This document shows positions 2,287 to 38,797 of a DNA stretch of 38,955 nucleotides, piece by piece. Within the stretch, counting starts at the first letter, position 1. Each line of letters opens with the position of its first letter. A program made the position numbers and the translations under genes. This stretch comes from Candidatus Nomurabacteria bacterium RIFCSPLOWO2_12_FULL_44_11 (lineage in GTDB: Bacteria; Patescibacteriota; Minisyncoccia; Phycocordibacterales; UBA9973). The notes under the pieces were generated by a model. It was not told where the DNA came from and did not search any database. It saw only the letters and a list, made by a program, of their open reading frames with translations. The stretch is from NCBI GenBank assembly GCA_001787125.1, contig MFVU01000032.1, positions 1 to 38,955 on the forward strand, in the 5' to 3' direction.

Positions 2287-2358
2287 ACGTGTCCCGTTAG
2301 AAATTCAACGAACGGGGATGAAAGATAAATATTATTATTATTTTAAATTTTTAATGGG
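2287..2358 (+). promoter_or_regulatory. structured 72-nt 5' leader, diverged member of the leader family (PfkB kinase gene)
   Basis: Starts 6 nt after TGcTATAAT (2272..2280) and ends at ..AATGGG|ATGG. Shares ACGTGTCCCGT, ACGGGG, GATAAAtATTATTA and TGGG-ATGG blocks, at the same or within 1 nt of the same positions, with the 72-nt elements at 13948..14019 and 27416..27487. Local hairpin CCCGTT/AACGGG (2293-2298/2311-2316); long-range helix 2293-2303/2348-2358. Confidence 0.6.
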
Positions 2359-3351: not shown

Positions 3352-3380
3352 TTTACCAGTTTACAACCGATTACGCTATA

Positions 3381-3398
3381 ATAGCGATATATCGCTAT
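3381..3398. promoter_or_regulatory. 18-bp perfect palindrome ATAGCGATATATCGCTAT overlapping the -10/+1/ATG of the TrpR-like gene (candidate operator)
   Basis: Self-complementary 18-mer. It overlaps TATAAT (3376..3381) and the start codon (3397). An identical copy lies at 3825..3842. Confidence 0.5.
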
Positions 3399-3798
3399 GC
3401 CACATGTATCTAAAAAAATATTAAATACCAAACAGGAAATAATAATTAAGGCTCGGCTTGTAGATATGCTACGGGCTGTGGGGAAAGACCACCGATCGGG
3501 CTATTCCCTGCGTGAATTACTTACTTATACCGAAATGATTATGCTTGCCAAACGCTTAGGAATAATTTACCTAGTAAGTAAAGAAACACCCACTCTTGAT
3601 ATTTGTAAAATTCTTCAAGTAAGTTCCTCGACTGTGATCAGAATTGAGAAAAGATTCGATCGAGGTGGATACCAAAATCTTTGTAAAGTTTTTAAAAAAC
3701 TGGAACCGTCTATTGTCGATGTGTTGGAAACTATTTTAGGAGCAGGACTGCCTTCGAAATACGGCAAGGGCCGTTGGAAATTCCTTAATGATTACTAA
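3397..3798 (+). CDS. TrpR/YerC-YecD-like helix-turn-helix regulator
   Basis: 133 aa. LLTYTEMIMLAKRLGIIYLVSKETPTLDICKILQVSSSTVIRIEKRF resembles the Trp-repressor-related YerC/YecD family HTH. Confidence 0.6.
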   Translation: MPHVSKKILNTKQEIIIKARLVDMLRAVGKDHRSGYSLRELLTYTEMIMLAKRLGIIYLVSKETPTLDICKILQVSSSTVIRIEKRFDRGGYQNLCKVFKKLEPSIVDVLETILGAGLPSKYGKGRWKFLNDY

Positions 3799-3824: not shown

Positions 3825-3842
3825 ATAGCGATATATCGCTAT
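3825..3842. terminator. second copy of the 18-bp palindrome, followed by TTTTA on the + strand (terminator and/or second operator)
   Basis: Identical ATAGCGATATATCGCTAT in the convergent gap between the regulator gene and the transketolase C subunit. Confidence 0.4.
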
Positions 3843-3874
3843 TTTACAGATAATATTTTTGCTTTTTTATATTT

Positions 3875-13409: not shown

Positions 13410-13736
13410 TTATATAAATTTATATGTCTTTTTCCAAGTGGAGATAGTGCCTTTTCTGTCAGATAGAGTAAGTTTTCCGAAAGTCCTTTCAATATCGTCT
13501 TTAGCCAAACACGCAATTTTAGAAAGGCGTAACCAGGATTCTAAAAGCAGGCCAGAATTCTGCCACTCCTTTATTTCATAATCACCTTTACCTTTTCGTT
13601 CAGTTGTTGTAATTGGGGCTAAAACTATGTCGTCATCCCCATAATCTAAAATCACTAGAGCCGGCCGCTTTTTTCTCACACCATCGGGCTGTAAAAATAA
13701 AACAAGAATAATATCTCCGAATTTATATCGAGTCAT
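13410..13736 (-). CDS. PemK/MazF-family toxin
   Basis: MTRYKFGDIILVLF..KKRPALVILD..VLAPITT.. is the typical MazF/PemK SH3-like barrel N-terminus. Overlaps the upstream antitoxin gene by 14 nt. Confidence 0.75.
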   Translation of the reverse strand: MTRYKFGDIILVLFLQPDGVRKKRPALVILDYGDDDIVLAPITTTERKGKGDYEIKEWQNSGLLLESWLRLSKIACLAKDDIERTFGKLTLSDRKGTISTWKKTYKFI

Positions 13737-13947
13737 AAATAGCGTCAGCGGAGCTATAAGATTTGAGCAAACTTCTCTTTGCCTTACTGTTCCAATTTTC
13801 CTGAATACCCATAGTAAAACGCCCAGTGGCAAAATCTCTTGTTGCGGATTGAAGAAAATCACTGAGAGCTATACCCAAAAGCTTTGCTTTTTTTTGGGCA
13901 ACTTTTTTTACTTTGGCATCGATTTTAAACATGATTTGTGTGGTCAT
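13723..13947 (-). CDS. antitoxin (RelB/DinJ- or RHH-like) of the MazF-type pair
   Basis: 74 aa. MFKIDAKVKKVAQKKAKLLGIALSDFLQSATRDF looks like a ribbon-helix-helix N-terminus. Translationally coupled to the toxin. Confidence 0.6.
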   Translation of the reverse strand: MTTQIMFKIDAKVKKVAQKKAKLLGIALSDFLQSATRDFATGRFTMGIQENWNSKAKRSLLKSYSSADAIYDSI

Positions 13948-14019
13948 CCCAGTACTAAAATTTTAATTAATAATCTTTATCGTTATGCCCCGTAATCAAA
14001 AATTTAGTACGGGACAGGT
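13948..14019 (-). promoter_or_regulatory. structured 72-nt 5' leader (copy A) of the TA operon
   Basis: The reverse complement is 69/72 identical to 27416..27487. It abuts the ATG at 13947 and begins 6 nt after TTGACA-16-TATACT (14053..14026, minus strand). Confidence 0.75.
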
Positions 14020-14126
14020 ATTACAAGTATATACTTTGTTATAACATTGTCAATACCCTTAATCATCCTGTCCCCCTGACAAGGGGGACTATAGGGGGTT
14101 AAAGAATTATGCTAATATGAAAACAA

Positions 14127-22580: not shown

Positions 22581-22665
22581 CCCGTTAGAAGCAGGTCGCG
22601 GTCAGACCGTGACTGCTTAAAGTTATTTTGTAATTTTTGCGACCGCGGCTTCTAACGGGATTCAT
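22581..22665 (-). promoter_or_regulatory. structured 85-nt 5' leader of hpf, same family as the 72-nt leaders
   Basis: TGtTATAAT (22680..22672, minus strand) + 6 nt + A(22665). The leader begins AUGAAUCCCGUUAGAAGC. A 14-bp helix AUCCCGUUAGAAGC/GCUUCUAACGGGAU (22661-22648 / 22592-22579) includes the A and U of the start codon. An inner 7-bp helix GACCGCG/CGCGGUC lies at 22647-22641 / 22603-22597. Confidence 0.55.
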
Positions 22666-22667
22666 CC

Positions 22668-24617
22668 CTACATTATAACATGCTTTTTATTTTTTCTTAG
22701 GCCGTGCAGGAGCGCTTGCAGGATAATATTAATTTTCATGGTGGCGACTCCTACTACTTTATCCGCTCCACCATAATAAATGTAAAGTAATTTACCGCGC
22801 AGGACCATGCCGCAGGGAAAAACGACATTACTGACAATTCCTTCTTTTTCGTATTGCTCTTCCGGCTCCAATATCGGGTCAGCACTGCGAGCCAGAACTA
22901 TGGCGGGATCTTTGAGATCAAGCAGGAGCGCGCCGACCCGATAGGTATGGTGACTCTTAGATATTCCGTGGTAGAGCAGCAGCCAGCCATGTTTGGTCTT
23001 AATCGGCGGCGCAGTAATACCGACTTTCCAGCTATCCCACATATTTACCCTCGGTCCAATAATTCTGATGCATTTTTGCACGGTTTCATTTTTAAAATCC
23101 AGTGTTGGTAGATAATCCCCGCAGATTTCGTTCCCTACACGATGCAGTATGAGATAGCCGGCGGGAAACTTCTCCGGAAAAAGACAGGTATCTTTATCGT
23201 CAAATTCTTGCGGAGTAATCAAAAACGGTTTTGCCCATTTCCATTTATGCGCCAAAAAATTTTTCTCCGAAATAGAAGAAACAGCCACTCGCGGAGGACC
23301 CACGCCGTCAAAAGCGGTGTAGCAGACATAAATATTTTTGCCAATTTGAGTTAGGCGTGGATCTTCGCATCCGGAATTCCCATTGCTGATTTTTTTGTTT
23401 TCAAAATCTTCCCGTGGAACATACACCGGTTCGGCTAGCCGCTCCTTGATGTTGTAACCGTCAGGCGCCATAGCATAACCGAAGCTGGAAGTATTGTCAT
23501 TGGAGAGAGCGCGATAAATAAGATGGGTTTTGCCGTTGAGCAATATGGCTGCCGGATTGAAAGTGGCTTTGGCCTCCCAGACATTTTCAGCTTTGGGAAC
23601 AATAATTGGATTACCGGGAAAACGTCTAAAGTGAAAATCCTCTTGCAATTGTGGGTATATACTGCCCAAAAGGTCGGCTAAATTGACATGCACCAAACAG
23701 ACAGTGGTATCAGCCGCGCCATAATAAATATTAAGCGTATCTTTTTGGAGTATTGCTCCGGTCGGGAAAACTACGTTGCCGACGAAACCGGTCATTTCAT
23801 ATGAGTCCTCGGGCACCAATATCGGACCTGCGGTGCGACCGATTATTTTCCGCGGGTCCTCCTGGTCAAGCAGTAAGGCCTCGATGCCAAAGATTCTTTT
23901 GGAATTGTCGGCGCCAAAATAATTCTGAATATATGAGTAAATAAGCAGCCAGCCATATTGGGTCTTTAAGGGCGGTGCGCCGATTTCCACATGATCGGAC
24001 TCGTTCCGCTTCGGATTAATTGTATGCTCGTCAATTTCCTTCTGCCACTTTTCCCAAAAATCTGGATTCCACAGTTCCTCTATTTTATCCAGCAAAGCAA
24101 TGGATGTTTTAACCGGGGGCGAATCGGTGTGAGCAGAGAAAATCACACATATTTTGCCGTTGATCCGTTCGGGAAAAAGCGCCATCGCCTTGGCGTTAAA
24201 CGGAGTAACCAGATACCTTTCATCCACTTTTTTTAAGTCCTTGGAAATAGCTACGGCAACCTTGATGCCCTCCGCAGAAAATGGATAAGCAGAAAGGGCG
24301 GTATAAAAAATATAAAATTTGCCTTCAAAAAAAGTGATCCGGGGATCCTCACAGCCATATTTCTCCCATTCCTCTCTAGGAGTAATAAACGGCGCGCGGT
24401 CTTCAAAGTGTGTGCCATCTTGACTCTTGCTTATCCCGATAATCGAGGTTTGACGGGGATTACGCAACATGTCTGGCGAGGAAATAGCGCGATAAACGCC
24501 ATAGGGTGTATTGCCCTTTTTTGTAACACTCATATTGAAAGTGGCAAAGGCCTCCCAGTAATGGTTTTTGTCCGGAATAAAAATAGGGTTATGGTGTGAG
24601 CGTCGGGCAACAAACAT
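22668..24617 (-). CDS. tandem double GH130-domain protein (beta-mannoside phosphorylase/glycosidase-like)
   Basis: 649 aa containing two copies of the GH130 pattern (HNPI..W(E)..A.FN..YRA.. GCEDPR.. YTA.. YYG(G)AD). Confidence 0.8.
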   Translation of the reverse strand: MFVARRSHHNPIFIPDKNHYWEAFATFNMSVTKKGNTPYGVYRAISSPDMLRNPRQTSIIGISKSQDGTHFEDRAPFITPREEWEKYGCEDPRITFFEGKFYIFYTALSAYPFSAEGIKVAVAISKDLKKVDERYLVTPFNAKAMALFPERINGKICVIFSAHTDSPPVKTSIALLDKIEELWNPDFWEKWQKEIDEHTINPKRNESDHVEIGAPPLKTQYGWLLIYSYIQNYFGADNSKRIFGIEALLLDQEDPRKIIGRTAGPILVPEDSYEMTGFVGNVVFPTGAILQKDTLNIYYGAADTTVCLVHVNLADLLGSIYPQLQEDFHFRRFPGNPIIVPKAENVWEAKATFNPAAILLNGKTHLIYRALSNDNTSSFGYAMAPDGYNIKERLAEPVYVPREDFENKKISNGNSGCEDPRLTQIGKNIYVCYTAFDGVGPPRVAVSSISEKNFLAHKWKWAKPFLITPQEFDDKDTCLFPEKFPAGYLILHRVGNEICGDYLPTLDFKNETVQKCIRIIGPRVNMWDSWKVGITAPPIKTKHGWLLLYHGISKSHHTYRVGALLLDLKDPAIVLARSADPILEPEEQYEKEGIVSNVVFPCGMVLRGKLLYIYYGGADKVVGVATMKINIILQALLHGLRKNKKHVIM

Positions 24618-24623
24618 ATAAAT

Positions 24624-25757
24624 TTAAATCCGGGTCATTTGTTTTTTTAATTTTGTTGCTTTATGTTTCCTGAGATCAGCCAAAAGGTCAGCCAATCTAA
24701 TGGTGGCGACACCTACAACTTTGTCCGCGCCGCCATAGTAAACGAAAAGCGTGCCGTCCCCGCCTGCGCGAGCAGGCTTTGCGACAGCGCCGCAGGAATA
24801 TATCACGCCCCATTTATACCCGTTATTCTCATAGTATTCCTCCGGCTCCAATATCGGACTGGCCGAACGGTAAAGAATTTTGGTTGGATCATTGGCATCG
24901 AGAATCATCGCGCCCATCCGATAGCGATCTGGGTTCCGGTGGTCCATGGCGTGATAGAGAATAAGCCAACCCAGTTCTGTTTTTATGGGTGTCGGCCCAA
25001 CTCCACGGAACCAGCTGTCCCAAGTTCGAGCTGGATCGATGGGGCGAGTGTTATTGCTTTTAATAAACTTGGCCTTGCCGTCCAGCTCCTCAAGCGTATC
25101 AAAATAATCAATTAAAACATTTGGGTAAAAACTATGCAGAATGGCAAATTTGCCGTTAATCTTTTCCGGAAAAAGCACCCAATTTTTATGAATCTCCCCG
25201 GGCGGTGAAATTAGAACCGGATTTTTCCATTTCCATTTTTTGTTTTCAAAATCCTGCAGTTTGATTGAGGTCAGAGCTATCCGCAGCGACCCCCAGCCGT
25301 CAAAGGCGGTGTAGAGCATGTAAACAGTATTATCCAAAAGAGTCAGGCGCGGGTCTTCGCAGCCACCGTTCCAGCCCCCGCCGGAAATATAATCGATGGG
25401 GAAAACAGTTGTATCGAATTTTTCTCTGCTATTGGCTCGTCGGTAAATAGAATGCGGGGAGCGGTCGGTAATGTTGTAGCCATCATCGCTTCCGGCGTAG
25501 CCCAGCACTGAAGAATCATCGTCGCCGATAGCTCGATAAACGATATGCACTTTTCCTTTATGCTCAAAGGCGGCAGGATTAAAAGTAGCTTTGGATTCCC
25601 AAGGATACAACCTCGGCTCGATGATCGGGTTGTGCACTGCCCGTTTCAAAAGTGCGCCTTTCTTTTTTTTTATTATTTTTTTTCCCGACGTTTTAGGTCG
25701 GGACCCCGTTCCCTTAGGGCGTCGGGGCTTTTTAAGCTCGGCCATATTTGTCTTCAA
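24624..25757 (-). CDS. GH130-family protein with basic N-terminal tail
   Basis: ..AVHNPIIEPRLYPWESKATFNPAAF..GCEDPRLT..YTAFDG..YYGGADKVVGVATI. Closely resembles the second domain of the neighbouring gene. Confidence 0.8.
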   Translation of the reverse strand: MKTNMAELKKPRRPKGTGSRPKTSGKKIIKKKKGALLKRAVHNPIIEPRLYPWESKATFNPAAFEHKGKVHIVYRAIGDDDSSVLGYAGSDDGYNITDRSPHSIYRRANSREKFDTTVFPIDYISGGGWNGGCEDPRLTLLDNTVYMLYTAFDGWGSLRIALTSIKLQDFENKKWKWKNPVLISPPGEIHKNWVLFPEKINGKFAILHSFYPNVLIDYFDTLEELDGKAKFIKSNNTRPIDPARTWDSWFRGVGPTPIKTELGWLILYHAMDHRNPDRYRMGAMILDANDPTKILYRSASPILEPEEYYENNGYKWGVIYSCGAVAKPARAGGDGTLFVYYGGADKVVGVATIRLADLLADLRKHKATKLKKQMTRI

Positions 25758-27372: not shown

Positions 27373-27415
27373 TTATTTTAATTAGATTATATCAAATCTG
27401 TGCTAAAATTGATAG

Positions 27416-27487
27416 ACCTGTCCCGTACTAAATTTTTGATTACGGGGTATAACGATAAACATTATTAGTTAAAATTTTAGTACTGGG
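27416..27487 (+). promoter_or_regulatory. structured 72-nt 5' leader (copy B) of the histidine-phosphatase gene
   Basis: 69/72 identical to the reverse complement of 13948..14019. Begins 6 nt after TGcTAAAAT (27401..27409) and ends at ..TACTGGG|ATG (27488). Confidence 0.75.
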
Positions 27488-28153
27488 ATGGCGACCAAAT
27501 TAATCTATTTCGTCCGGCACGGAGAGACGGAGTCTAATGCCCAAGGCATTCGGCAGGGACCAGAAGGACATTTAAGTGGGAAAGGGCGGGGCCAGGTGGC
27601 CGAAACAGCGAGAAGGTTCCCGAAGCATAAAGGTAAACCGCAAGTGATTATTGCGAGTCCTTATGAGCGGACTAAGGAAACGGCTGAAATCATCGGGCGA
27701 GAACTTGAAATGGATGTAGAATATTCTGACCTTTTGGTAGAGCGCAAAAATCCTTCGGAGATAATCGAGCGCAAGGGAGAAGACCGAGATGTGCGAAGTA
27801 TCGTAGATCGCATTGACAAAAGTTTCCATGAGGATAACTTGCGTTATTCTGACGAGGAAAATTTTATTGATCTAAAAGAAAGAGCCAGAGAGTTATTGGA
27901 TTACATCAAATCGAGGCCGGAAGAGCGCATCATCATGGTCACCCACGGAATATTTCTCCGAATGGTTGTATGTTACATGTTCTATAGCGACGCCCTCACC
28001 GCATCAGAATACAATAAGATAAGTTATTTTAATCCGATTGACAACGCCGGTATAGCCATAACTCAATATATCCCCCATTGGTTCAAAAAGGATGAATGGA
28101 GATTGATTGTCTGGAATGATAATTTGGTAGGCGAAGAAAAACCAGGGGGTTAG
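27488..28153 (+). CDS. histidine phosphatase family protein (phosphoglycerate-mutase-like)
   Basis: LIYFVRHGETESNAQG (RHG motif), ..SPYERTKETAE.., ..VTHGIFLRM. Confidence 0.85.
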   Translation: MATKLIYFVRHGETESNAQGIRQGPEGHLSGKGRGQVAETARRFPKHKGKPQVIIASPYERTKETAEIIGRELEMDVEYSDLLVERKNPSEIIERKGEDRDVRSIVDRIDKSFHEDNLRYSDEENFIDLKERARELLDYIKSRPEERIIMVTHGIFLRMVVCYMFYSDALTASEYNKISYFNPIDNAGIAITQYIPHWFKKDEWRLIVWNDNLVGEEKPGG

Positions 28154-28593
28154 CCCTGATGATGATTGCGCACTTTTTTCTCCAATTCCCCAAGCTTATT
28201 CTCAATGGAGTCCAGAGCATCCTTGATCTCTGAAATTGCGCTAACTTCGTTTTCCACTTCACTTTCCGTTTTTTGGGATAACCTTTTTTCGCCACGTAGA
28301 CCAGAAAGAATTAGCTCATTGCCGATAAAACTGGAGATAAAGGCCCCCGTGAAATACAAAATGATTCCGCCGACTAGGAGTGAGGCCGGCCCGTCCCACC
28401 AGGGGGTACTTACCGCATCAATGGTCAGATTATTTCCGTTGAGATTGAAATATTCATGGATTTGATCGGCACTATGCCAGATGCCTCGCCAAAACAAAAC
28501 GACGCCTGCCCCTACAACGAGCGCATACAACTTCGGCCGGTGGCTTAAATATGACGTAATTCTTTGTTCCAATTTAGATAATCCGCTTCGCAT
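28150..28593 (-). CDS. hypothetical 2-3 TM membrane protein with C-terminal coiled coil, 7 nt downstream of the RT gene
   Basis: 147 aa with hydrophobic segments LYALVVGAGVVLFW and LLVGGIILYFTGAFISSFIG. The start lies 7 nt after the RT stop on the same strand. Confidence 0.6.
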   Translation of the reverse strand: MRSGLSKLEQRITSYLSHRPKLYALVVGAGVVLFWRGIWHSADQIHEYFNLNGNNLTIDAVSTPWWDGPASLLVGGIILYFTGAFISSFIGNELILSGLRGEKRLSQKTESEVENEVSAISEIKDALDSIENKLGELEKKVRNHHQG

Positions 28594-28600
28594 CCTTTGA

Positions 28601-29596
28601 TTATATCATGATTCTTAATTTATATGCATTGCCGTGTTTCAATAAACCTAAATATGATTGTTTCGATTCTTTTTTAGGATTTTCCCTAATTCGTTTCAGC
28701 ATTTTCCTTTTTGTTGAAGTTCTTAAAACTCTATGACGCGGAAAATGCACCCAACCCAGGAAGTCTACCCCGGAAGCAAGAGTTTTAATAAAGACCTTAT
28801 CAGGATGCAGGTATATATTTAAATAGCTATTTAAATAAGTATTAATTTTTGGTAACAAATTTTCTAAATATCCTTTATCTTCATTTAAAATCACAAAATC
28901 GTCAGCGTATCTGATGTAATATTTCACTTTTAGTTCCCTTTTCATAAACTGGTCAAATTCATTCATATAAACATTTACCAGAAGCTGGGAAGTTAAATTG
29001 CCTAATGGTAATCCTTTGTTAATCCTCTCTGCGATAGCAGAGTTACTTAACATTGTAGAAAAGCTGTCTATCACCTGTCCTAGGAGCCAGAGAGTGTCGG
29101 TGTCAAGGTTGAACCTTGACAATATCTTCTTTAAAACCTGACGATTGATGTTTGCAAAGAATTTTTTGATATCGCATTTTAAAATCCAGCAAGTGCGAGT
29201 GTTATTTTTGGAAACCTTGCGAAACATTTGCCGAAACCTGTTTATGGCCTTATGTGTTCCCTTCTCGACTCGGCAGGAGTATGAGTCATGAATGAATTTT
29301 GAATCGAAATATTCATATAGTTCTTGATATATCAAATGATGCAACAATCTGTCCCTGACAGTTGCCTTGTGTATCTGCCTGGGTTTAGGGTCCGAAATAT
29401 TGAAGGCAATATACTCCCCATGCTTGTAGGTCTTATTTTTTAGGTCGTTGTGTAAATCAAATATATTGTCCATCAACTTTGCTTGAAATAAAATCACATC
29501 TTTTCTGTTCCTTTTATCACGCAAAAATTCCTGCCAGGCCAACAGCAGTTTTTCTATGGTTATGATATTATCGTAAGTATGAATAAATTGTCTCAT
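28601..29596 (-). CDS. DGR-type reverse transcriptase
   Basis: 331 aa, RT domain only (no maturase, endonuclease or RNase H region). Contains ..DPKPRQIHKATVRDRLLHHL.., the LPLGNLTSQ motif ([I/L]GxxxSQ, typical of DGR RTs), the catalytic YADD in IRYADDFVIL, and GVDFLGW. Confidence 0.9.
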   Translation of the reverse strand: MRQFIHTYDNIITIEKLLLAWQEFLRDKRNRKDVILFQAKLMDNIFDLHNDLKNKTYKHGEYIAFNISDPKPRQIHKATVRDRLLHHLIYQELYEYFDSKFIHDSYSCRVEKGTHKAINRFRQMFRKVSKNNTRTCWILKCDIKKFFANINRQVLKKILSRFNLDTDTLWLLGQVIDSFSTMLSNSAIAERINKGLPLGNLTSQLLVNVYMNEFDQFMKRELKVKYYIRYADDFVILNEDKGYLENLLPKINTYLNSYLNIYLHPDKVFIKTLASGVDFLGWVHFPRHRVLRTSTKRKMLKRIRENPKKESKQSYLGLLKHGNAYKLRIMI

Positions 29597-29966
29597 ATCG
29601 TTTTACCCCCCCCCAGCGCCGACGGCGCTTCTAAAAGCAAAAACGGCCTACACTCTTTGGTTTAAAGTATATAATGATTTCCCTAAAGCGCATCGTTACG
29701 TATTGGGTGGAAAAATTGAGGACTACTTTCTGGGTCTTTTAGAAAATATTTTCATTTCAATTTATCTACCTCCAGAAACAAAAGTTTCTCGCCTCACCAT
29801 AGCAATATCAAAATTGGATGGCATAAAATTCTTTTTACAAATAGCTTGGGAAAACAAATGCATCCCGAATGAAAAGTATTCTACCCTTTCCGAACACTTG
29901 CAAGAAATCGGCAGAATGCTCGGTGGCTGGAAAAAAGGACTTGAAAAGAAAACTCCTCGGCCGTGA
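29579..29966 (+). pseudogene. Avd-like four-helix-bundle protein gene, frame-interrupted at a C9 tract (opposite strand to RT/TR)
   Basis: Track ORF 29703..29966 (..KLDGIKFFLQIAWENKCIPNEKYSTLSEHLQEIGRMLGGWKKGL) matches the four-helix-bundle (23S-rRNA-IVS/Avd-related) family but lacks its N-terminus. The upstream in-frame sequence (..LLKAKTAYTLWFKVYNDFPKAHRYVLGGKIEDYF) continues the homology without a start codon. An ATG at 29579, 7 nt after TGaTATTAT (29563..29571), is in frame only if the C9 run (29606..29614) were C8 or C11. That change would give a 128-aa protein. Confidence 0.6.
29606..29614. repeat. C9/G9 homopolymer at the avd-like/RT junction
   Basis: Nine consecutive C on the + strand. 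On the minus strand the G9 ends 9 nt upstream of the RT ATG (GGGGGGGGGTAAAACGATATG). It is flanked by the hairpin AGCGCC-gac-GGCGCT (29615..29629). Confidence 0.9.
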
Positions 29967-29990
29967 GGTAGAGGAGAAAAACAAGAGTTT

Positions 29991-30097
29991 CGAGAGAACA
30001 CCCGATTGTCGGCGTTCCACGTGTTCGGGTTCTCGACGGAGTTGGCATTGACGTTCCAACCGCCGTCGTTCCAGTTCACGTTCACGGCACGGAGAAC
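29991..30097 (-). repeat. DGR template repeat (TR)
   Basis: 107 nt. The sense (minus) strand encodes VLRAVNVNWNDGGWNVNANSVENPNTWNADNRVFSR with ten AAY codons and 24 adenines in total. It aligns without gaps to 30496..30602. Confidence 0.9.
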
Positions 30098-30392
30098 CAG
30101 TGTTATCGTACATAAGATCATCTGTATCACTGCCGACCCAAGCACAAACTAAATGTCAGGGATCGTGCTGTATTTTATTTTGGACTTAGAAGTCCACCAA
30201 TATTATGCACCAATTCTTGTTATTTTTTGAAAAAACTTTTTATACTCTTGCGTAAGGCAAAAAGAAAACAGCCCAACGCAACTCTCACAAAAAATTTCTT
30301 AAGACCATGACGCGAAAGCCGTAACCGTCGCGTAGCACATGATTTCAAAAACATTGTATCAAATTACAAAATTAAATGAAGTAAAAATAGAA

Positions 30393-30424
30393 GACACCCG
30401 GCCCGCCGAAGCGAACCGAGTGTC
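30393..30424 (-). terminator. intrinsic terminator of the DGR target gene (14-bp stem, UUCG loop, U-rich tail)
   Basis: Minus-strand RNA GACACUCGGUUCGC-UUCG-GCGGGCCGGGUGUC followed by UUCUAUUUUUACUUCAUUU, 23 nt after the stop codon. Three pairs are G.U on the minus strand and C/A mismatches on the plus strand. Confidence 0.65.
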
Positions 30425-30446
30425 CAAGAGTCCCAGAACCCAAGGG

Positions 30447-31151
30447 TCAGCTTGCGGCTGATTCCTGAGGCACTGAGGATACGAGCGATGAATTGCGAGA
30501 GAACACCCGATCGTCGGCGCTCCACGTGAGCGGGCTCTCGACGGAGAGGGCATTGACGTACCAACCGCCGTCGTACCAGTGCACGAGCACGGCACGGAGA
30601 ACGCCGTTCTGGTCGCGAACGTAGAAGATGTTCGCGCGCCCGTCGTGGAGCAAGACGCCCTCTCCGCCGTTCGGCTGAGCCGCCATCATGGCGAAGACGT
30701 CGGTGAGAGCGACTTCCGTCTTACCCTCGCCGATCGCATCGAGGATCGGCTTGTCGACCGAGCGCTTGGTGAGTCGGGAGTAGCGGAGCTCGGTCGCGCG
30801 CCCGGGTTCTTCGATCTTGCCGAGCACCCACGCCCGGAAGTTGTCGCCGAGGTAGCTGATCTTCACCGGTGCCCTGCGGCTGGTGTCGACCACGAACTTC
30901 TCGGAAGCAACGAAGGCCCAGGTGTTCATCGGCGCGATGTAGGTACCGACGAGCTCGAGGAGAGGCGTCGGAGCGGGCGTCGCGACGGGTTCCTCGACAA
31001 CCAACGAAGCGTACATGGTCTCTGCCATGCGGTTACGCTTCGAGTTGACGATCTGTTGCACAAGAGCGGCACTGAAGCCGGCCTTGTCGAGGACCAATGC
31101 AAATTCATGCATCGCTCCACAGCTCATGTCACACACGCGGTCTGCGCTCAT
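30447..31151 (-). CDS. DGR variable (target) protein, 234 aa, VR at C-terminus
   Basis: AGGAG 8 nt upstream of the ATG. The C-terminus ..VLRAVLVHWYDGGWYVNALSVESPLTWSADDRVFSRNSSLVSS.. is the diversified copy of the TR-encoded peptide. No signal peptide or TM helix. The N-terminal ~175 aa has no family that I recognise. Confidence 0.85.
   Translation of the reverse strand: MSADRVCDMSCGAMHEFALVLDKAGFSAALVQQIVNSKRNRMAETMYASLVVEEPVATPAPTPLLELVGTYIAPMNTWAFVASEKFVVDTSRRAPVKISYLGDNFRAWVLGKIEEPGRATELRYSRLTKRSVDKPILDAIGEGKTEVALTDVFAMMAAQPNGGEGVLLHDGRANIFYVRDQNGVLRAVLVHWYDGGWYVNALSVESPLTWSADDRVFSRNSSLVSSVPQESAAS
30496..30602 (-). repeat. DGR variable repeat (VR)
   Basis: 95/107 identical to the TR. 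The 12 differences correspond to TR + strand T (sense-strand A) at 30007, 30015, 30024, 30025, 30030, 30042, 30043, 30055, 30070, 30076, 30081 and 30082. Confidence 0.9.
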
Positions 31152-38564: not shown

Positions 38565-38637
38565 GGGCCCGTAGCTTAGTTGGTAGAGCGCCTCATTTGC
38601 AATGAGGAGGTCACCGGTTCAAATCCGGTCGGGTCCA
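38565..38637 (+). tRNA. tRNA-Ala (UGC)
   Basis: Hand-folded cloverleaf. Acceptor GGGCCCG/CGGGUCC with the G3.U70 Ala identity pair, anticodon loop UUUGCAA, T arm ACCGG-UUCAAAU-CCGGU, 73 nt. CCA is not encoded. Confidence 0.9.
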
Positions 38638-38680
38638 CAAAACTCAAAAATTTCAACTGCTTGAGATTTTTGAGTTTTGT
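38637..38680 (+). terminator. 20-bp A/U-rich hairpin starting at the tRNA-Ala discriminator base
   Basis: ACAAAACTCAAAAAT (38637..38651) pairs perfectly with ATTTTTGAGTTTTGT (38666..38680). The stem extends 5 more pairs to a CTGC loop and ends in UUUUGU. Confidence 0.45.
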
Positions 38681-38797
38681 GGAGACCACAGCGATGTTTT
38701 GCGAGCATGCAAAACCGCGAGGGGCGGGCTGCGAAAATTTCGAGCGACGGCGAGAAATTATTTGTAGCCACAGGATTGTTCTTTTTTATTTTAATAT

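Follow-up and report, generated by a model that had tools for sequence, protein, structure and literature searches.

How a start codon is chosen without an anti-Shine–Dalgarno (anti-SD) tail is a question raised only recently, for the Parcubacteria (PMC9297842), and one that concerns operon interiors above all. The locus considered here poses it in a concrete form. In a 38,955-nucleotide stretch of Candidatus Nomurabacteria bacterium RIFCSPLOWO2_12_FULL_44_11 (contig MFVU01000032.1, positions 1 to 38,955; hereafter, the window), a 72-nucleotide block occurs twice, the reverse complement of positions 13948–14019 being identical to positions 27416–27487 at 69 of 72 positions, and each copy runs up to a start codon. 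The initial annotation described it as a leader shared by two genes; instead, these are two of at least 245 copies, situated before at least 84 unrelated gene families. The element is a clade-wide mRNA hairpin family of the SD-free Nomurabacteria/Paceibacteria, previously undescribed; our literature search found no description of it. Abundant, conserved and with sharp boundaries, this RNA feature is located at the very point of start choice and offers a handle on translation initiation.

Copies of the element in the window

Direct comparison of the two blocks (copies A and B; Table 1) reproduced both the claimed identity and the three differences, at element nt 33 (C/U), 45 (G/C) and 53 (A/G). 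Together they form by far the longest inverted repeat of the window (101 nt, 86% identity; the runner-up is 34 nt, 71%). At both loci the block ends with GGG immediately followed by the ATG of a genuine ORF, there is no SD sequence upstream of the start codon, and a gap of six nucleotides separates the block from the −10 box, which for copy A ends 6 nt upstream of the 'A' in ACCUGU; all of this agrees with the initial annotation. The promoters had been considered unrelated. TTGACA is present at copy A, and no −35 box was found at copy B; the two −10 boxes share one register, and hence the promoters are not wholly unrelated.

Each of the two copies folds as one long hairpin (−21.2 kcal/mol, z from −3.2 to −4.7). 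In copy A, UACGGGGC can instead pair with GUCCCGUA, giving a local hairpin that competes with the long one (−12.3 kcal/mol by itself). It had been claimed that all three substitutions fall outside the helices, but nt 33 extends the local hairpin, so that the 5' part alone has the energy of −12.3 kcal/mol in copy A versus −7.5 kcal/mol in copy B, and nt 53 belongs to the inner stem of the MFE fold, where A-U changes to G·U.

The 74-aa ORF behind copy A has no Pfam hit and, judging by its sequence, may encode a ribbon-helix-helix-like antitoxin; its end is overlapped by the PemK/MazF gene. Local duplication or gene conversion between A and B was rejected, since each of them is nearer to copies in other genomes (97.7%, loop) than to its partner (93%), and hence nothing specifically links the two loci; besides, copies of one genome resemble each other about as much as copies of different genomes do.

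Two further, diverged copies are present in the window, C at 2287–2358 (+) and D at 22581–22665 (−). Thus, the window contains four copies, upstream of the ribbon-helix-helix-like ORF with mazF, His_Phos, pfkB and hpf; roughly one gene in ten of the window carries the element. Copy C is preceded by TGCTATAAT (2272–2280) and six nucleotides, is adjoined by the ATG (2359) of a PfkB-family kinase gene, and has in its loop AACGGGG, the partner for the alternative pairing considered below; its promoter-plus-element layout is kept at the orthologues in L169 and L181. The inner stem of copy D is G+C-rich (−35 kcal/mol, z −6.2). Here TGTTATAAT (22680–22672) and six further nucleotides place the predicted +1 on an AUG (22665); the ORF of 26 codons that begins with it extends through the hairpin and ends with UAA (22587–22585) 4 nt before the hpf AUG; such whole-hairpin ORFs are rare in the family (7/245 copies) and were rejected as its general feature. 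At the gathering threshold, Rfam 15 yielded only two tRNAs in the window, and around copy A the best scores were 12–15 bits, compared to gathering scores of 35–65.

Table 1. Coordinates of the copies, their promoters and helices, and the adjacent genes in the window
Feature	Position	Strand	Details
Copy A, canonical arms, loop subtype 1	13948..14019	(-)	covariance model 98.1 bits, E 4e-21; element nt 1 = 14019, nt 72 = 13948; ATG 13947-13945 adjoins
Copy A promoter	14026..14053	(-)	TTGACA 14053-14048, 16-nt spacer, TATACT 14031-14026; 11/12 match
Copy A long helix, 5' strand UGU-CCC-GUACUAAA	14003..14016	(-)	partner 13945-13959
Copy A long helix, 3' strand UUUAGUAC-U-GGG + AUG	13945..13959	(-)	AUG pairs with UGU
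Copy A loop segment UACGGGGC	13987..13994	(-)	able to pair with GUCCCGUA (14008-14015)
74-aa ORF, AUG held in copy A	13723..13947	(-)	
PemK/MazF-family toxin, 108 aa from ATG 13736	13410..13736	(-)	PF02452, E 2e-8
Copy B, canonical arms, loop subtype 1	27416..27487	(+)	94.7 bits, E 2e-20; ATG 27488 adjoins
Copy B extended -10 TGCTAAAAT	27401..27409	(+)	ends 6 nt before 'A' of ACCUGU
Copy B long helix, 5' strand	27419..27432	(+)	partner 27476-27490
Copy B long helix, 3' strand + start codon	27476..27490	(+)	
His_Phos_1 histidine phosphatase, AUG held in copy B	27488..28153	(+)	PF00300, E 2e-28
Copy C, variant arms CCCGUUAGAAA/UUUUUAAUGGG	2287..2358	(+)	36.8 bits, E 2e-6
Copy D	22581..22665	(-)	arms CCCGUUAGAAGC (22659-22648), GCUUCUAACGGG (22592-22581); abuts hpf (S30AE) ATG 22580

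Size and placement of the family

The canonical-arm search pattern comprised the two arms and held no ATG. It yielded at least 121 copies in 65 Nomurabacteria/Paceibacterota MAGs, with at least 4–7 canonical copies per MAG and with the arms forming inverted repeats. In 118 of these 121 copies (97%; 116 ATG and 2 GTG) the start codon follows directly. A second scan added 124 copies with other arms, and the total of at least 245 copies is made up of the canonical-arm set from the 65 MAGs plus further metagenome contigs.

If the element were a generic repeat, its copies would be found away from the starts and in random orientation. This is not so, as 118 of the 121 copies abut a start and lie on the strand of the gene; the covariance model gives 75–102 bits on the sense strand versus 30–45 bits on the antisense one. 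In the helix, G·U prevails over A·C (368:36 and 248:68), which indicates selection at the RNA level.

The downstream proteins form 84 clusters among 118 and include FtsA, Obg, NusG, SecY, PurA, DHFR, S16, HPF, PfkB, His_Phos and the toxin–antitoxin pair. No further PemK/MazF or antitoxin homologues were found downstream of copies among the loci examined, and the MazF neighbour of copy A is coincidental. Hence a regulon and a MazF-specific leader were both rejected: the downstream genes are too diverse, and MazF is next to one of more than 245 copies.

The host lineage does without SD pairing, as shown statistically, its starts being either leaderless or reached by stop/start coupling: in 722 ORFs no SD enrichment is seen upstream of the starts, and ORF starts of these genomes have a leaderless −10 peak at −12/−13. 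Half or so of the Parcubacteria reportedly have no anti-SD, while h26, the contact of the SD helix, is conserved to an unusual degree (PMC9297842). A split or upstream SD brought near by the hairpin was rejected, given no SD-like enrichment upstream and none visible 5' of the elements; so was a DNA-level promoter with +1 on the ATG, as the hexamer at the right distance, UUUAGU/UUUUAG, is by our reading of the sequence a poor one. Across 2,072 ORF starts, no other hairpin-at-ATG family with a different foot was recurrent.

The initial annotation equated the block with the leader from +1 to the AUG. This fits copies A and B, which start at the predicted +1, but it does not define the family, since about half of the copies (121/245) are intercistronic. 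A same-strand ORF ends at most 40 nt from CCC in 82 of the 121 canonical copies, mostly at 5–14 nt, and the −10 peak, which ends 12 nt before CCC, is seen in 24% of the non-intercistronic copies, compared to 7% of the intercistronic ones.

Among orthologues with protein identity of 83–94% (nusG, the MAKT... gene and others) the element may be present or absent, and in the element-free orthologues the stop or TSS touches the ATG. Filled and empty orthologous junctions differ by exact indels between ...TTT and ATG, with no target-site duplication other than, at most, a single ambiguous 'A'; a half-element remnant is present in L066. The element is kept at orthologous genes pfkB, hpf, ftsA and obg, and at orthologous loci with proteins only 62–66% identical the arms are conserved while the loops drift. 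Thus, of the view that this is a cis-acting structure and not a mobile one, the first part holds, the structure being tied to the start codon, and the second is weakened by the differences between orthologues.

Long helix including the start codon

The long-range helix proposed for copies A and B is real and covaries strongly. It consists of some 23 pairs, interrupted by a single bulge and a single mismatch, and in 14 of the 23 both sides have changed; compensatory cells number 134, versus 57.9 ± 5.6 in shuffles (0/500), and the covariation score is 0.184, versus at most 0.057 in slid controls. The median hairpin energy is −18 kcal/mol.

The architecture is that of a hairpin of approximately 65–75 nt with the 5' foot A-C-N-UGU-CCC and the 3' foot GGG-AUG, and hence the AUG itself is base-paired. 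Its three bases form the pairs U-A, G·U and U·G. The base immediately 5' of CCC pairs with the first base of the start codon, being U-A in 121 copies and C-G in exactly the two GUG copies; the next pair is G·U in 113 copies and A-U in 9. The 5' foot takes the place at which, in its absence, the upstream stop or the 5' end of the transcript would adjoin the start codon. The conserved parts of the element are the helix arms and the foot, whereas the loops vary and fall into unrelated subtypes.

Alternative helix and loops

The competing local helix noticed in copies A and B proved real, as changes in the arm are matched by changes in its partner (CCCGUA/UACGGG, CCCGUU/AACGGG, CCCGUC/GACGGG), but it is confined to a subset of copies: the hairpin CCCGUN/NACGGG is present in approximately 29–48% of them, and about 60% lack it. 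Among the variant-arm loops the partner occurs in 29%, compared to roughly 0.5% by our own estimate of chance. This hairpin is equally frequent in promoter-proximal and intercistronic copies (45% vs 44%, p = 0.88), and its use as a promoter-proximal marker is not supported.

Subtype 2 of the canonical-arm copies has in its loop a 10-codon ORF ending 7 nt before the AUG (34/36 copies), and 35 of the 36 copies are intercistronic (Fisher p = 2e-6). As a family-wide trait this mini-ORF was rejected, being confined to that subtype and absent from the variant-arm copies (15/124). Its coding signature is weak (entropy 0.32/0.84/0.84 by codon position; 32% synonymous changes vs 17% expected), and the peptide itself is probably unimportant. 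A leader ORF starting from the NUG of ACNUGU was also rejected as a general mechanism; it is open in the canonical arms and meets UAG/UAA at codon 4 in most variant arms.

Possible function of the element

Tentatively we favour a start-codon lock opened by the ribosome, which we hold to be possible rather than probable. The AUG would be usable only once the 5' foot is pulled away. At intercistronic copies this would be done by a ribosome terminating 5–14 nt upstream of CCC, whose footprint would enter UGU-CCC and free GGG-AUG for (re)initiation, so that the opening would amount to classical translational coupling by unmasking. Extra keys may exist: in subtype 2, the 10-codon loop ORF; in copy D, the leaderless ORF reading through the hairpin; in subtype 1, including A and B, the local CCCGUN/NACGGG hairpin, able to sequester the 5' strand while the RNA is nascent. 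Either this hairpin or a ribosome sitting at the 5' terminus would serve as the key for A and B.

The key for these promoter-proximal copies is the weakest part of the explanation. A stop within reach of the foot (5–14 nt from CCC) exists for about half of the copies and not for the promoter-proximal ones, A and B among them; a translated upstream ORF is missing for about half of the copies, and more than half of those have no identifiable key. Against the lock also count the even spread of the local hairpin over both kinds of location, the lack of loop mini-ORFs among the variant-arm copies, the rarity of through-reading ORFs and the early stop in the NUG frame of most variant arms. Unless it were opened efficiently, a hairpin with −18 to −21 kcal/mol would severely block the AUG of housekeeping genes like secY, nusG, rpsP or ftsA, and the tight distance from the stop to the foot could be inherited from the junction that received the element. 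Finally, zero spacing to the AUG exceeds what masking needs, a cut site or an insertion site fitting it equally well.

Unmasking of a start by a translating ribosome is known for the MS2 coat-to-replicase and E. coli atpH-atpA pairs. As in these cases, the start codon is buried, the location is intercistronic, and the partner strand lies where the upstream ribosome would displace it. The differences are that here we deal with a portable, sequence-conserved cassette with many copies per genome, which fills the whole stop–AUG gap, always engages the AUG in the three terminal foot pairs, occurs also at transcript 5' ends, and operates without SD.

If the foot is a cut site, an endonuclease specific for structure and sequence would cleave GGG|AUG and produce a leaderless downstream mRNA, the default substrate of these ribosomes, the hairpin either staying on the upstream RNA as a protective 3' structure or, at transcript starts, being removed from the 5' end. 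This processing signal is a doubtful but serious candidate. A single mechanism would serve both the intercistronic context and the transcript start, including most of the promoter-proximal copies, for which no key is identifiable; it would account for the zero spacing in 118/121 copies, for the conserved foot UGUCCCGU/GGGAUG, and for the requirement of pairs beneath the cut, the GUG/C covariation included, and it suits a leaderless-rich, SD-free lineage. Precedents are the RNase III hairpins, such as the R1.1-type sites between phage T7 early genes and those for excision of rRNA intervening sequences, and, for the leaderless mRNAs of mitochondria, punctuation by tRNAs. Like the former, the element has approximately 20–23 bp with a bulge or mismatch between co-transcribed genes, and cleavage would leave an upstream 3' hairpin and a new downstream 5' end. 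Unlike them, it includes the start codon in its helix, and the putative cut is at the helix foot, exactly where the start codon begins, so that the product would be leaderless; the RNase III enzymes known so far cleave about half-way along helices of approximately 22 bp and not at the foot, which counts against foot cleavage. Moreover, processing leaves unexplained the mini-ORF of the intercistronic copies, the covarying alternative helix, and the through-reading ORF of copy D with its end 4 nt before the AUG.

One may speculate further, though we would lean against it, that the hairpin is mRNA punctuation that followed the loss of the SD:anti-SD interaction, a dedicated nuclease acting at GGG|AUG to make leaderless mRNAs both of internal cistrons and of transcripts with a leader, which would be a bacterial counterpart of the mitochondrial system. 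In a bolder variant, drawn by analogy, the hairpin might dock the AUG directly into the P site; the foot, with three G-C pairs on the UGU:AUG mini-helix, may resemble the anticodon stem of the initiator tRNA on its codon.

The third alternative is a functionless selfish palindromic insertion (MITE/REP-like, or an ssDNA-mobilised hairpin) landing 5' of the ATG and persisting, as it is proposed, since the junction of stop/TSS and AUG would stay functionally intact once the hairpin is looped out. The number of copies per genome, the exact presence or absence among close orthologues, the diversity of target genes and the half-element remnant all favour such an origin, and as an origin it can in part coexist with the other explanations. 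As a complete account it seems unlikely. Target-site duplications are absent, and no associated transposase was seen in a non-systematic look. The association with the strand and the start codon is strict; G·U prevails over A·C; copies within a genome are no more alike than those between genomes (0.757 vs 0.740, with 0.788 for orthologous copies); and at diverged orthologous loci the arms are kept as the loops drift. REP/BIME, Correia/NEMIS, ERIC and MITE repeats are likewise short multi-copy intergenic hairpins with presence/absence polymorphism, and they can affect mRNA stability or processing; however, they are not known to abut start codons strictly, they frequently lie in either orientation, and target-site duplications flank MITEs, whereas the element abuts the AUG in 97% of cases, is always co-oriented with the gene, leaves no duplication and has RNA-type G·U tolerance.

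The hairpin could also replace the SD as a ribosome-recruiting structure, either mimicking the SD helix in cis or acting as an IRES-like element, which we regard as quite improbable. Were the 6-bp foot to fray, the 8-bp helix GUACUAAA/UUUAGUAC would be found at −12 to −5, the usual docking place of the SD:anti-SD duplex on the 30S platform. This geometry is readable directly in the sequence, sequence as well as structure is conserved across 65 genomes, and the element precedes essential and presumably well-expressed genes; the absence of anti-SD in about half of Parcubacteria together with the unusual conservation of h26 (PMC9297842) also fits. Nevertheless, the argument is purely geometric, the arms covary, so that no single helix sequence is required, and many genes of the same genomes have no element.

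A ligand or temperature switch, or a device specific to the MazF toxin–antitoxin operon, is suggested by the two mutually exclusive helices of subtype 1 and by the masked AUG of the stable fold, but is highly improbable: a riboswitch is at odds with the incoherent set of at least 84 downstream gene families and with loops, the expected site of an aptamer core, that are the variable part and form unrelated subtypes; the alternative helix is missing in about 60% of copies, no Rfam family matches, MazF is beside only one of more than 245 copies, and a thermometer was rejected, as the stem (−18 kcal/mol in the median, −35 in copy D) is far too stable and the downstream genes are housekeeping ones.

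If the lock, cutting to leaderless mRNA or platform docking is true, it would represent an organisation of initiation not documented in model bacteria. A similar genomic background is that of the leaderless-rich mycobacteria and Deinococcus, which likewise have the −10 box 6–7 nt before the ATG at first genes and overlapping or tightly spaced internal genes; no hairpin cassette is known to be inserted in their junctions. The cauliflower mosaic virus 35S shunt offers another parallel: a short ORF ends just before the hairpin base, initiation occurs just past its other side, and the hairpin joins the take-off and landing sites. Unlike the family described here, the shunt is a single element of eukaryotic scanning, and ribosome bypass here would be an analogy only. 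Whichever mechanism operates, the covariance model is of practical use for Paceibacteria MAGs: its matches mark true starts and operon junctions there, where gene callers lack the SD as a guide.

Two copies of the leader and the wider family

The reverse complement of copy A, located before a toxin-antitoxin operon, matches copy B, located before a histidine-phosphatase gene, at 69 of 72 positions (differences at nt 33, 45 and 53), as the initial annotation stated. The repeat extends over 101 nt at 86%, the next best inverted repeat in the window covering 34 nt at 71%. The description of the boundaries also held: both blocks start 6 nt past a -10 box and end with GGG followed by the ATG of a real gene, and neither has a Shine-Dalgarno (SD) sequence. 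Each copy folds into a single long hairpin (-21.2 kcal/mol, z from -3.2 to -4.7). The substitutions, reported to lie outside the helices, do not all do so: the one at nt 33 lengthens the local hairpin, the isolated 5' part folding at -12.3 kcal/mol in copy A vs -7.5 in copy B, and nt 53 lies within the inner stem, where A-U becomes G.U.

Nothing links the two loci specifically: each copy is closer to copies from other genomes (97.7% loop identity; L086, L062, L028, L010; L043) than to its partner (93%). The mean loop identity is 0.757 for different genes of the same genome, 0.788 for orthologous genes of different genomes, and 0.740 for unrelated pairs. Thus, the near-identity of copies A and B reflects clade-wide sequence conservation, and this comparison rules out a recent local event.

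A scan of one genome per GTDB species with a pattern comprising the arms only (CCCGTACTAAA, 30-60 nt, TTTAGTAC, 0-1 nt, GGG; no ATG included) yielded at least 117 stretches with at least 121 canonical copies in at least 65 MAGs, which bear the labels Candidatus Nomurabacteria, Paceibacterota or Patescibacteria; several of these genomes contain at least 4-7 copies each. Copies lying mostly away from start codons, which the initial annotation took as the sign of a generic repeat, were not what we observed: 118 of the 121 listed canonical copies directly abut a start codon (ATG, n = 116; GTG, n = 2). The conserved sequence of the six bases 5' of CCC, not covered by the pattern, is A-C-N-U-G-U (A in 121 of 123, C in 111, U in 119, G in 114, U in 121), and no conservation was found further upstream in the canonical copies; the invariance of CCC and GGG is partly a product of the search patterns. 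The proposed covariance model, built from the copies, scored 75-102 bits on the sense strand vs 30-45 on the antisense strand. Together with a repeat finder, it revealed two more copies in the window, C and D, each with ATG at the 3' end and TGnTATAAT ahead. A metagenome scan excluding the canonical arm added at least 124 copies with variant arms. The genes downstream of the element include diverse housekeeping genes, encoding FtsA, Obg, NusG, SecY, PurA, DHFR, S16, HPF and PfkB. The window sequence is matched by MFUN01000005.1 (GCA_001786965.1), an accession from the groundwater MAG series that also includes the Nomurabacteria records.

Features of the window and of retrieved loci (L numbers) mentioned in the text
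Feature	Position	Strand	Description
Copy A	13948-14019	-	promoter TTGACA-16-TATACT (11/12 match); 74-aa ORF, then overlapping PemK/MazF gene downstream
Copy B	27416-27487	+	extended -10 TGCTAAAAT only; His_Phos_1 gene downstream
Copy C	2287-2358	+	before PfkB kinase gene
Copy D	22581-22665	-	before hpf
Element copy	L057:1792-1879		directly after tRNA 3' end
Element copy	L072:163-251		directly after intrinsic-terminator-like hairpin and T-run
Element copy	L082:4557-4644		directly after intrinsic-terminator-like hairpin and T-run
Atypical relative	L031:6416-6503	-	inner-stem changes fully compensated (CUUCGAC/GUCGAAG); SD (GGAGG) follows in place of ATG
Short atypical version	L020:7440-7491	-	CCCGUACCAAGC…GGUACUGGG, without start-codon abutment
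Diversity-generating retroelement	28150-31151		bAvd-family product beside the reverse transcriptase (public record)
RVT_1 reverse transcriptase	28601-29596	-	
Template/variable repeats	29985-30097; 30490-30602		113 nt
Retroelement target gene	30447-31151	-	
22-nt palindrome	3377-3398; 3825-3846		TATAATAGCGATATATCGCTAT / ATAGCGATATATCGCTATTTTA
ORF flanked by the palindromes	3397-3798	+	133-aa HTH (Trp-repressor-like)
Tandem GH130 paralogues	22668-25745	-	mannooligosaccharide phosphorylase-like; two-domain 649-aa gene and 373-aa gene
Hairpin with 23-nt perfect arms	38634-38683		96% complementary; between tRNA-Ala and tRNA-Asn, starting within the last bases of tRNA-Ala

The start codon in the foot of the hairpin

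Among 74 distinct sequences, variant arms included, 14 of the 23 helix pairs vary on both sides in an alignment fitted to the model. The number of compensatory cells was 134 vs 57.9 +/- 5.6 in shuffles (reached by 0 of 500), and the covariation score was 0.184 vs at most 0.057 with the partners slid; one helix pair, for example, is GC in 23, UA in 23, GU in 10 and AU in 9 sequences. The base 5' of CCC pairs with the initial base of the start codon, as U-A (n = 121) or, in precisely the two copies starting with GUG, as C-G; the following pair, involving U of AUG, is G.U (n = 113) or A-U (n = 9). Thus, the element is a sense-strand hairpin cassette whose foot includes the start codon. The excess of G.U pairs over A.C mismatches (368:36 and 248:68), along with the strand-specific scores, points to a structure at the RNA level rather than a DNA palindrome.

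In an unbiased survey of 2,072 ORF starts, covering all the DNA retrieved, a long-range hairpin was predicted to close at the start codon in 300 cases, with the foot ending in GGG in 160 of them. As the feet of the other 140 did not recur, there is no other recurrent hairpin-at-ATG family among these starts.

Gene junctions with and without the element

The host genome is essentially SD-free. The first genes in the window, such as dnaE, gap and lepB, are typically leaderless, with 6-8 nt between TGnTATAAT and ATG, and internal genes overlap the preceding gene or start 1-4 nt past its stop; the only clear SD in the window, AAGGAG, precedes the retroelement target gene. Over 722 ORFs of these genomes we observed no SD enrichment (SD-like tetramers were flat at 0.4-1.2% per upstream position; strong SD, 2.4%), and -10-like hexamers peaked at -12/-13 (12.6% and 5.7% vs approximately 2.5% background). 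According to Tsurumaki et al. (PMC9297842), the anti-SD motif is absent from about half of Parcubacteria, bS21 is often missing, and there is conspicuous conservation of h26, which makes contact with the SD helix. Some genes at empty sites have A/U-rich leaders of 10-40 nt without SD, hence de novo SD-independent initiation seems also to exist in the lineage.

The 5' foot abuts either an upstream stop codon or a predicted transcription start. In 82 of the 121 listed canonical copies, an ORF of 80 aa or more on the same strand ends at most 40 nt from CCC, mostly at 5-14 nt, so that in these intercistronic copies the element fills the whole gap between stop and AUG; variant-arm copies behave in the same way. 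Among copies without an upstream ORF, 24% have a -10-like hexamer ending exactly 12 nt before CCC (background, about 1-7%; intercistronic copies, 7%), which places +1 at the A of ACNUGU, the geometry of leaderless ATGs in these genomes. No upstream ORF lies near the copies at L057, L072 and L082, and none of the three has an in-register -10 box.

Comparison of orthologous junctions demonstrates exact presence or absence of the element: TAA-TTT-ATG (L095) vs TAA-TTT-element-ATG (L012); TGCTATAAT-10 nt-ATG vs TGCTATAAT-6 nt-element-ATG; and, at 90% protein identity, ...GATATTTATTT|ATG vs ...GATTTATTATTT|element|ATG. In orthologues lacking the element the junction is closed, and no target-site duplication was seen at the compared junctions. 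The element is retained in an hpf orthologue (62% identity) and, together with the promoter and the alternative-helix partner, in pfkB orthologues (65-66%); ftsA, obg and other gene groups carrying it recur across species. At L066, only the 3' half (…AACAATTTAAAATTTTAGTACCGGG-ATG) is left, approximately 100 nt ahead of the start ATGCATACAGTC, the upstream ORF being fused into the loop; the orthologues L026 and L113 have a full element.

Loop subtypes

The canonical copies (at least 121) have two loop subtypes. In the first (at least 74 copies, A and B among them), the loop contains UACGGGRY, which can pair with GUCCCGUA, forming the local helix proposed initially. In variant arms the partner shifts in step (CCCGUU with AACGGG, n = 20; CCCGUC with GACGGG, n = 1), and 29% of variant-arm loops contain a partner vs roughly 0.5% by our chance estimate. 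This helix is not more common in promoter-proximal than in intercistronic copies (p = 0.88).

The second subtype (36 listed copies, L001, L002, L003, L007, L012 and L017 among them) is intercistronic in 35 cases (Fisher p = 2e-6), and 34 copies contain a mini-ORF of 10 codons (M[TVI]xxxxxLKF) that starts at an AUG in the apical loop, where it is unpaired, and stops at the UAG of the 3' arm, 7 nt short of the main AUG. Its start, length and open frame are kept and the peptide is poorly conserved; the variant-arm copies (at least 124) lack it. In copy D (region 22581-22680, minus strand), which at -35 kcal/mol is more stable than the other three copies in the window, an AUG at 22665, at the predicted leaderless +1, opens a 26-codon ORF running through the hairpin and stopping 4 nt ahead of the hpf AUG; such ORFs are rare (7 of 245 listed copies). 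The ftsA-associated copies (L006, L049, L056, L068, L093) have an extended -10-like GTGATATAAT in the loop (GTGGTATAAT in L068), which suggests an internal promoter yielding a transcript that would lack the 5' arm and have its AUG unmasked.

Possible function

Our tentative reading, possible rather than probable, is that the element locks the start codon until a ribosome opens it. The AUG is masked in the fold, the stop-to-foot distance puts UGU-CCC within the footprint of a terminating ribosome, and the mini-ORF, the through-reading ORF and the competing hairpin would be independent means of opening, which make sense only if the helix must be opened, not removed; we favour the lock for these reasons. 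Cleavage at GGG|AUG releasing a leaderless mRNA, the main rival and only slightly less likely, would serve intercistronic and promoter-proximal copies by a single mechanism, and accounts for the zero spacing to AUG and for the many promoter-proximal copies where we found no means of opening. A selfish palindromic insertion, tolerated because it loops out, is unlikely as a full explanation, and as an origin would be compatible with the other readings; a cis helix imitating the SD duplex on the 30S platform is more unlikely still. A switch that senses a ligand or temperature is very improbable, as is a device dedicated to the toxin-antitoxin operon.

The element has no match in Rfam 15, and a full-text literature search found no description of it. 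Start-masking hairpins, intercistronic processing hairpins and palindromic repeats are known in kind; the combination, a sequence-conserved multi-copy cassette replacing the junction between transcription start or stop and AUG, with AUG always in the foot, in an SD-less lineage, was not found described. The element has a real chance to reveal a new mechanism of initiation or processing.

Other features of the window

Of the 14 differences between the retroelement repeats, 13 fall on adenines of the template, as read on the coding strand. The palindromes around the HTH gene may be an autoregulatory operator or delimit a small cassette. The direct-repeat families D2-D8, D10, D12 and D16 are due to the GH130 paralogues.
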